DNA of 64,000 nucleotides from a virus. Where the stretch lies: IMG/VR virus record IMGVR_UViG_3300025881_000010, positions 18,527 through 82,526 of that record, one strand, 5' to 3'. Below, piece by piece: positions 18,436 through 62,886 of the stretch (within the stretch, counting starts at the first letter, position 1; every line of letters begins with the position of its first letter). The notes below the pieces were generated by a model. The model searched no databases, was not told the origin of the DNA, and was given only the letters and a program-made list of their open reading frames with translations. Position numbers and translations under genes: made by a program.

Positions 18436-20013
18436 TTATATTAAGGATTGTCCTGAATTTCCTTTAGCAAATATTTCTGAAACTTCTGCAGCAGTTAATT
18501 CTTTATTAAAAATTGGCATTTCATCTAATTGCCCGTTTAATTTAAAGTTAGCATCTGCCTGATAATTTCCTATCCATAATTCATTATTTGTATTTGCCAT
18601 TTTAACATAAGTACCGGTCATTATACTGGCAGAAGAAACTAAAGTTCCATTTATATATGTTTTCATACCTCCATTTCCTAATCCGTTATAAGTATGAACT
18701 ACATGAACCCAAGCACCAGAAATAATAGCGTTTGTAGTGATATTTTGAGTAATATTATCGTATGAACCGTTACTAAATAATCTCCAAGTTAAAACTCCAC
18801 CATTATAATAACCGAAATATTCATTATTGGAATAGCTTGAATTCAGCTTAGAGAAAATCATAAATTTAGTATCCGTAGTTTTTATCCAATATGAAATACT
18901 AAAAGGCTTATCGTTTGTGCCATCTATAAAACTCAAACTATCAGTATCGCCTAAATTTATAAAACTAGTTGAACCATTTAATACTGCTGCCTGTCCTACT
19001 AATCCGGCTGCATAAGTAATTGCTGTTGGCGTTCCATTATTCGCTCCGAAACTATCTAAAACATTCCCTTCCATTTTGTAGTAGGAAATAATACTACTTA
19101 CTGGATAAGGCTCACTAGCATTTGTTTTTTGCGATACTGTATTACTTGTAGATTTATTATAGTAAATATCTACTGGCTTCACTTCAAAAGTATAAGTGGT
19201 ATCAAGACTTAAACCTATACAATATCCACCTGATTGTATTTTTCCTTTATAAACTCCATTAGCATATACCTCATAAAACTCAATTGCATTTGTGCTTCCT
19301 GTGGGTGCGGTAAAATTAAGTTGAACGGCTGATCCGTAAACATTGCTTATACTTAGGTCTGTAATAGGATTTGGTAAAAGTTGATCGTAGGTATAAATAT
19401 CTCCAGTTACCCACTCGACTTCTAGCATATCGTTTGCAATTCCATGAGCTATTGTTGCATTTACACCCCCTGAATTACTTGTTTTATTAAAAATATTTGC
19501 ATAAATCTTTTGTTTTACATCGCCTAATCCAAACATTGTTGTATCTGCAACAGATGGGTCTCCGCCTATATTCGTTGCTAAAGGAAAGTATAAAATACGA
19601 GGTGCTAAATCAGTATAATTCGAATGATAAAATGAACTATTATTAATAGTTAAACAACCAGGGAAATAAAACATTGCTGTATTGTTACTAACATAAAATG
19701 ATGCCGGTAATAATTTACATTTTTTTGCTATATCTATCCAATAAGTTGGACTTGAAATTGTGTTTGCAGTATTTTTGAATGCATATGGTCTAAGGTTATA
19801 ATCCAAATCAATAAAGCATTCAATATTATCACCAACAATAGTAAAATTATAAATATTAGAGGGTGAAAAATCTGAACCGCTAGGATAATTTAAAAGTTTT
19901 GCAGCCAAGAGAGATGGTGTATTTATTATAGATGCAACCCCACCAATAAAAGTATTAGGCTGCAACGCCTGAATACTACTTTTCCCATATTCAAAATACT
20001 GTACTGGATTCAT
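18436..20013 (-). CDS. Tail fibre/receptor-binding protein with FN3 and LamG (concanavalin-like) domains
   Basis: FN3-like PNPITDL...YTFEVKPVD; LamG motifs FSISYWIK, WVHVVHTY, YING, GQLDE. Confidence 0.8.
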   Translation of the reverse strand: MNPVQYFEYGKSSIQALQPNTFIGGVASIINTPSLLAAKLLNYPSGSDFSPSNIYNFTIVGDNIECFIDLDYNLRPYAFKNTANTISSPTYWIDIAKKCKLLPASFYVSNNTAMFYFPGCLTINNSSFYHSNYTDLAPRILYFPLATNIGGDPSVADTTMFGLGDVKQKIYANIFNKTSNSGGVNATIAHGIANDMLEVEWVTGDIYTYDQLLPNPITDLSISNVYGSAVQLNFTAPTGSTNAIEFYEVYANGVYKGKIQSGGYCIGLSLDTTYTFEVKPVDIYYNKSTSNTVSQKTNASEPYPVSSIISYYKMEGNVLDSFGANNGTPTAITYAAGLVGQAAVLNGSTSFINLGDTDSLSFIDGTNDKPFSISYWIKTTDTKFMIFSKLNSSYSNNEYFGYYNGGVLTWRLFSNGSYDNITQNITTNAIISGAWVHVVHTYNGLGNGGMKTYINGTLVSSASIMTGTYVKMANTNNELWIGNYQADANFKLNGQLDEMPIFNKELTAAEVSEIFAKGNSGQSLI

Positions 20014-58987: not shown

Positions 58988-60424
58988 GTGATGGAAGAAG
59001 AGAATAAAAAGAAACTTCCACCACCAGCTCCCGAAGATAATTTTAGACAAAAATCTAAAGAAGAAAGCAAAATGTTTTGGCATGAAGGAGTGCCCTATGC
59101 TCCGCCAAGTGCTATAGATTTTGAGGAAACTGTAATTGGTGCATTATTAATAGATAAGAAAAGTCAGGAAGAGGTATGTCCATACTTGTTGCCTGAAGTT
59201 TTCTTTGTCTTAAAGAATCGTAGAATTTATTCAGCGATTTTAGATATGTATCAAAAAAGTAATCCTATAGATCTATTAACAGTTTGTGATCAGTTAAGAA
59301 GAAAAGGTTATCTCAAGCTAGTAGGTGGAGAAAGTTATCTCATAGAACTTACTCAAAAAATCTCTTCTGGTGCTCATATTGATTTCCATTCTCGAATACT
59401 TATTCAAAAATATATTCTTAGAGAACTTATTCAAAATTCAACAAATACTATTACTCAATCCTATAAAGATGATCCAGATAGCATTAAGCTTTTGGACAAT
59501 ACAGAAATAGAATTGAGTAGAATTAAAGAAGTTGCATTGCGTAAAACGTCTGTCAATGAACTTTCTGAAGAAGATGAACTAAGAGAACGAGTAGAAAAAG
59601 AACGTTCAGGAGAAATCGTTGGATTTCCAATTGGCGTTTTTGATTTTGATGATTGGAGTGGAGGACTACAATTAAGAGAATTAATCTGTTTTGCTTCAAG
59701 ACCAGGTATGGGAAAAACAAGTGTTATGCTTTCCATGTCTAAGAATTTGGTAACTAATAAAAATATACCAGTTCAAATATTCAGCTTAGAAATGGCTAAG
59801 GCTGATATCAATTATAGGATAGCAGCATCCCTTACCCTAATTCCTTTTTCAAGGATTAGGAAAGGAAAATTAACCGATGAAGAGTTTAATAAAGTTGTAG
59901 AAGCAATTAGATGGATTAAGAATGATTCCTTGTTTAATATCTATGATACTAAAGATTGCAAGAATGTCTTGGAAGTGATCATTCAAATGATCAGAAAAGA
60001 TGTTCGCGATAAAGGAGTAAAGATTGTATATATAGATTATGTTCAACTTATGAATTTAGCTGTAGGAACTGGAAATGATACGCAAGATTTAAAGCGTATT
60101 ACCAGAGCCTTAAAGCAAATTGCTAATGAGCTGAATATTCTAGTTATAATGTTCTCACAATTGGGTAGAGAAGTAGATAAGCGTAAAGGTCATAGACCAA
60201 GTTTAGGAGATTTAAAGCAGTCTGGTTCTATAGAAGAAGACTCAGACATGGTATACTTCTTTTTAAGGGAAGCATACTATAGAGAGCAAGAACTTAAACC
60301 AGGAGATCCACCATTGCCAGCAGAATTTGCAGGTCAAATAGAACTTATTGGTGGTAAAGGTAGAAGTACCGGTGTGAAGAATTTCATGGCGAACTTAGAA
60401 TTTTCATCATATACTTTAAGTTAA
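58988..60424 (+). CDS. dnaB: Replicative DNA helicase DnaB
   Basis: ASRPGMGKT, FSLEM, IDYVQL, SQL.R and DL..SGSIE.D.D; host-like N-terminal domain. Confidence 0.95.
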   Translation: MMEEENKKKLPPPAPEDNFRQKSKEESKMFWHEGVPYAPPSAIDFEETVIGALLIDKKSQEEVCPYLLPEVFFVLKNRRIYSAILDMYQKSNPIDLLTVCDQLRRKGYLKLVGGESYLIELTQKISSGAHIDFHSRILIQKYILRELIQNSTNTITQSYKDDPDSIKLLDNTEIELSRIKEVALRKTSVNELSEEDELRERVEKERSGEIVGFPIGVFDFDDWSGGLQLRELICFASRPGMGKTSVMLSMSKNLVTNKNIPVQIFSLEMAKADINYRIAASLTLIPFSRIRKGKLTDEEFNKVVEAIRWIKNDSLFNIYDTKDCKNVLEVIIQMIRKDVRDKGVKIVYIDYVQLMNLAVGTGNDTQDLKRITRALKQIANELNILVIMFSQLGREVDKRKGHRPSLGDLKQSGSIEEDSDMVYFFLREAYYREQELKPGDPPLPAEFAGQIELIGGKGRSTGVKNFMANLEFSSYTLS

Positions 60425-60450
60425 TGATGGTAGATAATTATTAATTGTGT

Positions 60451-60458
60451 TATGTTTG
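60451..60458 (+). promoter_or_regulatory. -7 promoter (TATGTTTG)
   Basis: Consensus, upstream of HU ATG 60487. Confidence 0.6.
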
Positions 60459-60486
60459 TAGAAAGTCCAACAGAACGTATTTACAG

Positions 60487-60783
60487 ATGAACAAAACACA
60501 GCTAATTAGTGAGGTTTCCAAAAACACAGGAATACCTCAAAAGACAGTCAGAGATGTTATGAACTCTATGGCTAAAATTATTCAGGACAAGTTAATATTA
60601 GGAGTGAATGTAAAGATTGCAGAATTTTTATCATTCACTCTAATAACTCGTGCTGAAACAAGACGTAGGAATCCTAACACTGGAGAGGAAATAATCGTAC
60701 CTAAGAGGTATGGTTTGAAAATAAAATTGCCTACCAGTTTTAGTAAAAGATTATCGGATAAGAAGGTTTATGATGGAAGCTAG
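60487..60783 (+). CDS. HU/IHF-family DNA-binding protein
   Basis: MNKTQLI..V ... RNPNTGEEI.VP. Confidence 0.9.
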   Translation: MNKTQLISEVSKNTGIPQKTVRDVMNSMAKIIQDKLILGVNVKIAEFLSFTLITRAETRRRNPNTGEEIIVPKRYGLKIKLPTSFSKRLSDKKVYDGS

Positions 60784-61060
60784 TAAAAAAAAATATTTCT
60801 TTAAGAAGGCACTTCCTAATATGAGTAAAGAGCAAATTAAAGATTATTTAGAATATCAAGTTTTCGAAACTGAATTATTTCAAGATCACGTCTTACAGGT
60901 TTCATTAAACCTTAATGTTGACGAATGTGTTGTCCGAGATATATTGAAACATTATTTTATAATGGTAATGTATATCTGCAATACGAAAAGAAAATTTTTA
61001 ACCAAAATCAATCTCTATGGTTTTTGCTCCTTATTTGTGGAGAAAGGCAATAGAGTTTAA
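60770..61060 (+). CDS. Divergent, arm-less HU/IHF-like protein
   Basis: VS..LN.....V.DIL..YF...INL.GF pattern; ends before the DNA-binding arms. Confidence 0.45.
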   Translation: MMEASKKKYFFKKALPNMSKEQIKDYLEYQVFETELFQDHVLQVSLNLNVDECVVRDILKHYFIMVMYICNTKRKFLTKINLYGFCSLFVEKGNRV

Positions 61061-61071
61061 ATTCAATTATT

Positions 61072-62205
61072 ATGAGTGGATTAACAGCAAACGTAGGTGG
61101 AGACAGTAAAAAGATTGAAAACGTACCTTTAATAAATGAAGGTAGACAAGTCTTCACTATCTATGGAGTAGCCGGTATCGGTACTCAAAACACTAAGTAT
61201 GGAATGAAACAACAATTAGCGTTGGCTTTTGAGTTTCCATTTCAAAAGAGAGTATTTTATGAAGGAGATCCAGAACGTCCATCTGCATTGTTTCAATATG
61301 AAACATTATCAATGGCTCCAAAATCTAATCTTCGTAAAATGGTTCACGCTTTGACAGGTAAGAAATTAACCGATGATGAAGCTAAAGATTATGACTTAGG
61401 TAATCTTAAAGGAATGCAAGGTGTGGCTTACATTCAACATTCTGATGATGGTAAATATGCTAACATTAATAGCATTGAAAAACTAGATAGTCAGAACATG
61501 CTAATGTTCGGTTTACAACAGCCTCATGTAGATCCTGTAAATGAACAATTCTTTTATCATTCAGGTATGGGATATGATACTGAAATCTTTGGGAAGCTTC
61601 CGGGTAACTTTCGTAAGAGAGTAATGGAATCTACTGAAGGTATCACACATCATAATGCCGGAGGTAAATTCCATGATCAGATTAAGAAGTATAATAATGA
61701 TAATAATGAATCTGGAGGTACGCAAAGCAATCCTAACAGAAAGCTTATCATGAAGCCTGATTCTCCATATACATATGATCAGTTGAAAGCTTCTAATTAT
61801 TCTGAACAGCAGATGGTAGATAATAATTATGCTTTTTGGCAAGAAGTTGTAGCGGCTCCAGCACCTCAACAAGCTCCACCCGTTCAGCAAACCCAACAAG
61901 CACCGCCACCTGCACAGCAAGCACCACCTGTTCAACAGCCACAAACTCAACAGGCACCACCTGTTCAAACTCAGCAAGCACCACCGCCAGTGCAACAAGC
62001 ACCACCGGTACAGCAAGCACCGAGTTCTAGTCCTCAACCTAATCAACCGCATCCAAGTGGTCAAGGTTTTTATACAGGATATGCAGATACTCGTGGTACT
62101 CTTTTATTGAGAACAAACCAGTTTACTGTTAAAGAATGGTTTGATAACAAGTGGACTGTAGATACTTTAGTATCTAATGATCACGCGTTTTTCTTACAGG
62201 AATAG
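61072..62205 (+). CDS. Single-stranded DNA-binding protein-like (NGO0469-type N-domain), 377-aa zero-frame form; 415-aa form ends at 62318 via -1 shift
   Basis: GTQ...TLS...K.NLRK...YANI..I domain; P/Q linker; DDAEDDLPF tail in the -1 frame. Confidence 0.8.
   Translation: MSGLTANVGGDSKKIENVPLINEGRQVFTIYGVAGIGTQNTKYGMKQQLALAFEFPFQKRVFYEGDPERPSALFQYETLSMAPKSNLRKMVHALTGKKLTDDEAKDYDLGNLKGMQGVAYIQHSDDGKYANINSIEKLDSQNMLMFGLQQPHVDPVNEQFFYHSGMGYDTEIFGKLPGNFRKRVMESTEGITHHNAGGKFHDQIKKYNNDNNESGGTQSNPNRKLIMKPDSPYTYDQLKASNYSEQQMVDNNYAFWQEVVAAPAPQQAPPVQQTQQAPPPAQQAPPVQQPQTQQAPPVQTQQAPPPVQQAPPVQQAPSSSPQPNQPHPSGQGFYTGYADTRGTLLLRTNQFTVKEWFDNKWTVDTLVSNDHAFFLQE
61853..62022 (+). repeat. Tandem QQAPP(V)Q coding repeats
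   Basis: About 6-7 imperfect CAAGCACCACC-type units. Confidence 0.85.
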
Positions 62206-62317
62206 AAGCTCCAAAACAGTCTGCATCTATTCCACCTATCAACAAGACTGAAAGTGTAAATGAACAATTTCCAGCAAACTTCAATTTAGATGATGCTGAA
62301 GATGATTTACCGTTCTA

Positions 62318-62662
62318 ATGCACAGTTTTATTTGTAAAGCTCCAAACGGCTATCCAGAGCCGTTGGAGCCTTCAAAAAGAAGTTTACTTGATAAGATACT
62401 CAAAGATGCTAAAGAGAGAGGATTGACCTTTAAACTTAGTATCGAGTACATTGAGAAGAACCTTAACGCTGAACAGAAATCATTATACAGAGGTTTTATA
62501 TTAAAAGCATCAAAATCTTTAGGTTATGAGTATCACGATATGGAGAAAGAGCTTAAAAGATTTATGCCTGATAAACCACTTGACAGATGGAGTTCACGAG
62601 AGTTAACTGAATTCATAGATCAATCTTCCGCTTTTTTAGTCCAGTGGGGATTTAATTTTTAA
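62318..62662 (+). CDS. NinB/Orf-like recombination protein (114 aa)
   Basis: Q..LY......A...GY......ELK ... S..E..EFID......G pattern. Confidence 0.5.
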   Translation: MHSFICKAPNGYPEPLEPSKRSLLDKILKDAKERGLTFKLSIEYIEKNLNAEQKSLYRGFILKASKSLGYEYHDMEKELKRFMPDKPLDRWSSRELTEFIDQSSAFLVQWGFNF

Positions 62663-62664
62663 AT

Positions 62665-62886
62665 ATGATATTTCTAATATTAGCTCAAGTTTTAAGAGCA
62701 GCATTAATATGGACAACTGGATATACTGCCAAGAGAGTTACTAAAACTTTCATCTGTATGTTCGTTACGTGCTACTTACTTGAAAGATTAAAACGACAAA
62801 ATTATATAGATAACAAACGTGGATATAACACCGACCCCGAGCCAAGAAGTATTGGTAACGAAAATAGACAAGTTCCTCAACAGTAG
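62665..62886 (+). CDS. Small hydrophobic protein (73 aa)
   Basis: ORF; overlaps the helicase start by 68 nt. Confidence 0.45.
   Translation: MIFLILAQVLRAALIWTTGYTAKRVTKTFICMFVTCYLLERLKRQNYIDNKRGYNTDPEPRSIGNENRQVPQQ

Follow-up and report, generated by a model that had tools for sequence, protein, structure and literature searches.

The phage genome IMGVR_UViG_3300025881_000010 of the IMG/VR collection encodes a putative binding protein for single-stranded DNA (SSB) whose acidic C-terminal tip is written in another reading frame than the rest of the gene. The window analysed here is a stretch of 64,000 nucleotides (nt; positions 18,527 to 82,526 of the record), i.e., the last 64 kb at the 3' end of a record that measures 82.5 kb and is complete according to CheckV. 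The tip of SSBs is the peptide by which these proteins dock the enzymes of replication, recombination and repair, and the locus thus raises the question of how the phage gains access to it, or whether it does so at all. The comparison of the window with related phages points to programmed -1 ribosomal frameshifting, which would yield tip-less and tip-bearing isoforms of one protein, as the probable answer, and we assign this reading a probability of roughly 0.8.

The locus and its two reading frames

The elements of the SSB-like gene on which the argument is based are as follows.

61072..62205, + strand: zero-frame open reading frame (ORF) of the ORF list, 377 amino acids (aa), the tail-less isoform of the SSB-like protein
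62187..62193, + strand: candidate shift site G_UUU_UUC with the minimal motif U_UUC (62190-62193), as read from the sequence
62193..62318, + strand: -1-frame extension LTGIEAPK...NFNLDDAEDDLPF with its stop codon TAA (62316-62318), 41 codons
62194..62198, + strand: spacer UUACA, 5 nt between shift codon and hairpin, so that the stem starts at +6 past the Phe codon
62199..62233, + strand: putative stimulatory hairpin with a 19-nt loop, 5' arm GGAAUAGA (62199-62206) and 3' arm UCUAUUCC (62226-62233)
62203..62205, + strand: zero-frame stop codon TAG, three codons past the shift codon
62301..62315, + strand: tip D-D-L-P-F of the SSB C-terminal (SSB-Ct) type, from the translation; the extension ends in DDAEDDLPF
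62318..62662, + strand: next gene, 114 aa, N-terminus MHSFICK, whose ATG overlaps the -1-frame TAA (TAATG)

The zero frame ends with GCG TTT TTC TTA CAG GAA TAG at position 62205 (protein end ...NDHAFFLQE), exactly as the original prediction for this stretch had it. The same holds for its description of the -1 frame, which is closed by TAA and TGA at 62175-62180, is then open from 62181 to 62315 (45 codons; translation SRVFLTGIEAPKQSASIPPINKTESVNEQFPANFNLDDAEDDLPF) and terminates at TAA 62316-62318. The prediction noted that this frame opens only past the upstream stops and lacks ATG and GTG as start codons, and TTG is missing from it as well. Both frames overlap by merely 22 nt (62181-62202), and the T5 run at 62188-62192 is the sole slippery stretch within this overlap. 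Slippage at the Phe codon (62191-62193) would join 374 and 41 residues to a protein of 415 aa with the computed junction of ...HAFF and LTGIEAPK; the two product lengths of 377 and 415 aa that had been put forward are accordingly reproduced by the arithmetic, and so is the junction.

The sole public sequencing run that holds this stretch is a marine metagenome from 2017, which may be the source sample of the window. A second, independently assembled contig of 82,370 nt with a word depth of about 83 is identical to the window over positions 61600-62700, without any indel and with the same run of five T, whereas six T in the reads had been named as the finding that would speak against a frameshift. 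As a contig of possibly the same sample it is a check of the assembly, not of the biology.

Conservation of the frame break in related phages

A profile scan of IMG/VR and of JGI/NCBI metagenome contigs retrieved five further full-length genes (L006, L084, L085, L086 and L088), which stem from IMG/VR, Ga0307379 and SDBT01 and represent, together with the window, at least four data sets. Their proteins share 39-44% identity with that of the window and 54-63% among each other, with the exception of the pair L086/L088 (82%). The zero frame of all five ends in ...G[YHL]ATFQ-TAG, and the -1 frame runs on for 45-58 codons to [DE]DDLPF-TAA. The overlap of this TAA with the following ATG, which the original prediction had taken as a sign of translation, is confirmed in the window and recurs in all five relatives (5/5), where the ATG belongs to a homologue of the window's next gene. 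Instead of a continuous ORF in all relatives, which had been proposed as the decisive counter-evidence, the -1 break is thus found in five diverged genes at the very codon where the window has it. The break itself is kept, but the TTTTTC site of the window is not: the relatives have U_UUU at the equivalent zero-frame Phe codon, within the context ACU UUU CAR UAG (T4 run), compared with U_UUC within G_UUU_UUC in the window.

The codons of the DDLPF tip vary across the six genomes (Leu TTA/TTG/CTA, Pro CCG/CCT/CCA, Phe TTC/TTT, Asp GAT/GAC). Because the peptide is kept through these synonymous changes, the -1 ORF is under purifying selection as judged from its codons. A further motif of the -1 ORF, FDGGPH, is common to four of the relatives.

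Two other ways of decoding the junction were considered and rejected. A +1 shift at UUU_C leads into a frame that is closed again some 17 codons later and lacks the tip. Some crAss-like phages read TAG as an amino acid, but a reassignment of this codon would provide the zero frame of the window gene with a short unconserved extension only. TAG terminates 14 of the 73 long open frames of the window, and its removal as a stop codon lengthened these frames less than the removal of TGA or TAA. No tRNA genes are encoded in the phage window, and the window gene has neither a protein nor a DNA match among the INPHARED phages.

Candidate shift site, spacer and hairpin

A tRNA-Phe bound at UUC (62191-62193) can pair anew with the UUU at 62190-62192, one base upstream. 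Two motif classes, Z_ZZN and X_XXY_YYZ, are distinguished for -1 shifts, with Z_ZZN tetranucleotides as the minimal sites, and heptamers that start with G_UU or G_GU are among the known sites (PMC5009743). The original prediction compared the site with the G_GUU_UUC of phage T7 gene 10. The proposed tRNA-Phe slip on a U-run is retained, while the motif that is shared is the minimal tetranucleotide U_UUY and not the T7 heptamer; in the window it is embedded in G_UUU_UUC.

The geometry of the site is common to all six genomes and consists of a U before the zero-frame Phe codon, a spacer of exactly 5 nt and a hairpin that begins at +6. The hairpin of the window comprises 8 bp with a minimum free energy of -12.5 kcal/mol (z -4.6), and none of 200 shuffled sequences folds equally well; its 5' arm contains the zero-frame stop codon. 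The original prediction makes no mention of this structure, which would supply the stimulator expected at about 5-9 nt from the shift site of a programmed frameshift. Over the six genomes the hairpins range from 8 to 11 bp, from -10 to -15 kcal/mol and, based on dinucleotide shuffles, from z -2.8 to -4.6, and the zero-frame stop is located one to three codons past the shift codon, beside or within the 5' arm of the stem. The six outer stem pairs are paired in 30 of 30 cells (six pairs in five relatives), and two of the six exhibit compensatory changes (A-U/G-C and U-A/A-U/C-G). This covariation was counted on the five gaplessly aligning relatives only, as the MAFFT/RNAalifold analysis of all six genomes misaligned the window.

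The stem of the window differs in sequence from those of the relatives. By homology its TAG aligns with the TAG of the relatives, but the window contains about six extra nucleotides, and its hairpin has moved with respect to the stop codon while the distance of 5 nt to the shift codon is kept. The movement of the hairpin at constant distance points to selection on the spacing between hairpin and shift codon itself. An H-type pseudoknot between the loop (CAGUCU) and a downstream AGACUG was also considered, but helices between the loop and downstream sequence are no better than expected by chance in any of the six genomes (60-466 of 500 shuffles) and this candidate was dismissed.

An OB-fold protein and an SSB-type tip

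The protein has a domain with an oligonucleotide/oligosaccharide-binding (OB) fold at residues ~24-195, two small modules at 223-258 and 336-375, and P/Q-rich disordered linkers. The AlphaFold2 model of residues 1-215, which is based on 57 sequences, reaches a predicted local distance difference test (pLDDT) score of 91.6, compared with 77.5 for the full-length model, in which the linkers have low values. PrgE from pCF10, a DNA-binding protein of the SSB-like type with an OB fold, is the best match among solved structures (Foldseek E 4e-4; VIA Z 7.0 with 117 aligned residues), followed by chains of SSB, RPA and PriB with weak scores. Among predicted viral structures (BFVD) many uncharacterised phage proteins are found with E-values down to 2e-15, and DUF669-annotated models appear at E ~5e-6 to 4e-5 with template modelling (TM) scores of 0.34-0.52; DUF669 accounts for 10% of the neighbour cluster of the window protein in the structural atlas.

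Neither the window protein nor any of the 57 family members has a match in Pfam, including PF00436 and PF05037 (DUF669), the latter tested up to an E-value of 1, and a sequence-profile search of the PDB with the window protein is empty, too. The window protein itself lacks a PHROG match, but its relatives with 24-33% identity match phrog_862 at E-values of 1e-8 to 5e-24, a family annotated as 'unknown function'. The protein probably belongs to the uncharacterised OB-fold phage family phrog_862 and is not a canonical SSB. DUF669 and N4 SSB have been proposed as divergent OB-fold SSBs with acidic tails (Kazlauskas 2016, PMC4889955), and the DUF669 protein Gp63 'Healer' binds ssDNA, with a C-terminally truncated form resulting in a lower recombination efficiency (PMC13687109).

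The acidic [IL]-P-F tip on a disordered linker is present in the window, via the -1 frame (DDAEDDLPF), and the gene is surrounded by the following neighbours.

58988-60424: DnaB gene, upstream of the SSB-like gene
60445-60783: gene of an HU-type DNA-binding protein (PF00216, E 3e-20), between the DnaB gene and the SSB-like gene
60770-61060: ORF of 96 aa without family match, overlapping the 3' end of the HU gene
62819 onward: gene of an SF1-type helicase, downstream of the SSB-like gene

A gene of the PF00436 or PF05037 type is absent from the entire phage genome. On the basis of fold, tail and gene context, the protein is very probably the ssDNA-binding protein of the phage. The designation as SSB in the original prediction is hence backed by the OB fold, the tip and the replication-gene context, but not by a match to PF00436 or DUF669. 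The gene for the protein with the N-terminus MH[SQ]FICK (114 aa in the window) is always located directly 3' of the SSB-like gene; in the window (62318-62662) it has no match in Pfam or PHROG.

The two modules are copies of a beta-alpha-alpha-beta unit of about 35 aa (61738-61845 and 62077-62196) with the motif GWT[DE]E..[IL]V..G.A.[FW]. No family was found for this unit, and an atlas search with the C-terminal copy gave weak structural leads only, one of them being the hint of a similar module on a cluster of Enc34-type SSBs. Within the second module, the shift codon belongs to the final strand. Both frames read Leu as the next residue (UUA or CUU), so that both isoforms would keep this module intact.

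Tailed, broken and tail-less forms within the family

In an HMMER search that covered 1.84 billion representative proteins exhaustively, 953 relatives were recovered at E-values up to 0.001. In the wider family, D-D-[IL]-P-F or a similar sequence terminates frame 0 at nearly all of ~150 loci, which encode phage proteins of ~205 aa. This predominance of an in-frame tip indicates that the tip is both ancestral to the family protein and functional in it.

The clade of long forms, to which the window belongs, exhibits three states. Nine further clusters at 50% identity end in '...[STYN]FQ' like the genes whose frame break is verified in the DNA (P0005-P0008, P0011, P0015, P0018, P0020 and P0028), and one of them, P0018, is a near-twin of the DNA-verified L084. 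In the continuous sister clusters, for example P0002, P0013, P0019, P0021-P0023 and P0029, the same module leads straight into a short acidic tail with the ending D-[VL]-P-F. The FQ-stop and continuous clusters (P0002-P0008 and others) have support on the protein level only. The third state is represented by the tail-less clade of L002 (1893-2921), L004, L082 and L083 (= P0004), whose sequence ends in HAHYE-TAG-TAG-ATG. Whichever frame is read, a tail is missing here, U-run and hairpin are absent as well, and the next gene begins with its ATG directly past the stop.

In a quick maximum-likelihood tree of the long forms, the five genes with a break verified in the DNA group with five FQ-stop clusters and a single continuous form in one clade with a support of 99% in the Shimodaira-Hasegawa-like approximate likelihood ratio test (SH-aLRT). 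The window is placed outside of it in an unresolved region of the tree, and P0002, the closest protein by identity (47-52%), is continuous. The joint grouping of verified and FQ-stop forms suggests that the break is old within that clade and labile over longer distances, and the FFLQE-TAG version of the window appears to be a distinct variant of the cassette.

Several other long forms (P0039, P0047, P0003, P0014, P0012, P0016 and P0025) stop right past the same module with endings other than FQ, such as ...AEWIESAV, ...ADWVK and ...ASMK, and may be other break variants or truly tail-less. A separate peculiarity of some distant members on metagenome contigs (L091, L092 near 884-1420, L093, L096 and L105) is an in-frame TGA exactly in place of the Gly that is nearly invariant in the IDLGTQ motif (...CVSIIDL*TH...), which suggests phages with genetic code 25 (TGA = Gly) and hosts among Gracilibacteria/Absconditabacteria.

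Proposed mechanism and alternative explanations

According to the scenario that we favour, most ribosomes would read UUU UUC UUA CAG GAA and terminate at UAG 62203-62205, which results in the 377-aa protein with the OB fold and two modules but without the tail. The 8-bp hairpin 5 nt downstream, positioned at the mRNA entrance, would slow a fraction of the ribosomes, and on these the tRNA-Phe would slip one base back from UUC (62191-62193) to UUU (62190-62192). Reading in the -1 frame would then continue with CUU ACA GGA... and add 41 residues up to DDAEDDLPF, thus giving rise to the 415-aa protein. As the tip is the docking peptide of SSBs, the shift site would set what share of the protomers on the ssDNA of the phage carries the tip, and the two isoforms might tune partner recruitment, as the original prediction proposed.

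Several observations weigh against this scenario. The 415-aa product is a prediction from the sequence. With G_UUU_UUC in the window and no more than U_UUU in the relatives, the heptamer is minimal or imperfect, and hairpins of -10 to -15 kcal/mol are of modest stability; the shift could hence be inefficient. The host is presumed to belong to the Bacteroidota, whose frameshifting behaviour has been little studied. The clade of L002, L004, L082 and L083 has lost the tail entirely and close relatives such as P0002 are continuous, from which it follows that the state of the frame is evolutionarily labile and that a tail-less protein is evidently viable. Finally, the run used to verify the five T may be the very sample behind the assembly of the window.

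The last point touches on the possibility, already raised with the original prediction, that a sequencing or assembly error dropped one T from a true T6 run and disrupted a continuous ORF. The break does sit in a homopolymer, and the only run with this sequence may be the source sample, but the contig of another assembler (~83x word depth) has T5 and no indel, and five contigs of other projects share the -1 break at a T4 run. Six assemblies with one and the same error are implausible; an assembly error is very unlikely and a hidden T6 hardly credible. A real indel that inactivated the tail recently or is tolerated, with the tail-less protein as the only product and the -1 ORF as a decaying remnant, would be in line with an entire clade that lives without the tail and with P0002, whose continuous frame documents that frame states flip in evolution. 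Decay, however, would bring stop codons into the -1 frame (~7% per random triplet at 33% GC, as estimated from the composition), whereas five lineages at 40-60% protein identity have retained a -1 ORF that runs through 45-58 codons free of stops, with a synonymously varied DDLPF and the overlap with the next ATG. Since such a remnant also leaves the shift motif, the 5-nt spacing and the covariation of the hairpin without explanation, we regard it as improbable.

The remaining alternatives accept the tail but produce it differently. Slippage of the RNA polymerase, which would add one U at the T4-T5 run and turn part of the mRNA into an in-frame fusion, finds a homopolymeric T-run at the break in all six genomes. 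Productive slippage of this kind usually needs runs of roughly 7-9 or more (reviewed in PMC5009743), and the T4-T5 runs are far shorter; moreover, the feature that is kept, an RNA hairpin 5 nt past the Phe codon, is a hallmark of ribosomal and not of polymerase shifting, which makes a transcriptional origin unlikely. There is only a slim chance that the -1 ORF is translated separately, by non-canonical initiation or termination-reinitiation, into a free SSB-tip microprotein of ~40 aa that would compete for SSB-Ct sites. The -1 ORF has no ATG, GTG or TTG in either the window or L084 and no start codon at a conserved position in the other four genomes, the open stretch of the frame begins only 2-20 codons before the U-run in every genome, and the sister proteins have the tail attached in frame right after the same module. 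Programmed -1 frameshifting by the ribosome accommodates these observations and is retained as the probable explanation.

Comparison with known systems

The phage gene would resemble dnaX of E. coli (tau/gamma) as a replication gene with two isoforms by a -1 slip, a nearby downstream hairpin and a stop codon close behind; the isoforms of both systems would differ in a C-terminal partner-binding region. The dnaX shift occurs on A_AAA_AAG with tRNA-Lys and results in a shorter product, whereas the shift proposed here would use U_UUY with tRNA-Phe and lead to a longer product that gains the tip. An upstream Shine-Dalgarno-like stimulator is a further component of the dnaX system. In gene 10A/10B of phage T7, as proposed for the window gene, tRNA-Phe slips by -1 on a U-run shortly before the ORF ends, which results in a C-terminally extended minor isoform. 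The phasing is GUU UUC in T7 (X_XX = G_GU) versus UUU UUC in the window (X_XX = G_UU), the stimulator of T7 is a distant 3' element as opposed to a hairpin at 5 nt, and the T7 gene encodes a capsid protein and not a DNA-binding protein. The G_GUU_UUC site of T7 gene 10 is an imperfect heptamer with G at the first position (PMC5009743), as is found in the window.

The tip corresponds to the SSB-Ct (...DDDIPF in E. coli, ...DDLPF in the Bacteroidota type) with respect to its acidic character, its [IL]-P-F end and the disordered linker behind the OB fold, but it is attached to an OB-fold protein outside of PF00436 and is reachable only by recoding. The phage SSBs of the DUF669/N4 type and PrgE (PDB 8S4S, 8S4T) are divergent OB-fold ssDNA binders of phages and plasmids with acidic C-termini, and the window protein may be of this kind. 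No frameshift has been reported for them, and the clade of the window differs by two additional modules and P/Q linkers and by the missing sequence match to PF05037.

Full-text searches of the literature revealed no description of a frameshift in an SSB gene, and the term 'SSB' does not occur in the accessible part of the Atkins review. The nearest published parallel is the variation in staphylococcal podophages, whose SSBs are either full-length or truncated by small indels, with the C-terminus deciding on the sensitivity to Nhi (bioRxiv 10.1101/776245). The tail is present or absent as in the family investigated here, but the variants were described as mutations between phages and concern another protein family and host. 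The proposed event, a programmed -1 frameshift that would generate a C-terminally extended isoform, is itself of a known type, and its comparative support is unusually good.

Implications for phage replication and annotation

If the proposed frameshift is true, the locus would be a clear example of a phage replication protein in which recoding toggles one short peptide, namely the docking tip of the SSB type. It would provide a natural system to study how many tips an SSB-coated strand needs, with a ratio that is hard-wired in a mutable RNA element. This would connect the frameshift with the role of phage SSB C-termini in deciding recombination efficiency (PMC13687109) and the escape from defence systems (10.1101/776245). 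Placing the SSB tip behind a -1 frameshift might even be a recurrent, convergently evolved means for phages to set, and perhaps to regulate during infection, the number of protomers on ssDNA that recruit enzymes of the host or the phage or are sensed by host defence systems that recognise phage SSBs, an extension that we offer as a tentative idea.

The finding also has consequences for annotation. Gene callers truncate such proteins, as at least ten clusters at 50% identity end at the break; about 110 nt of coding sequence are thereby left as intergenic and the tip is missed in the annotation of crAss-like phages. For phrog_862, a large uncharacterised phage family, the fold and the tip would provide a hypothesis on the level of function.

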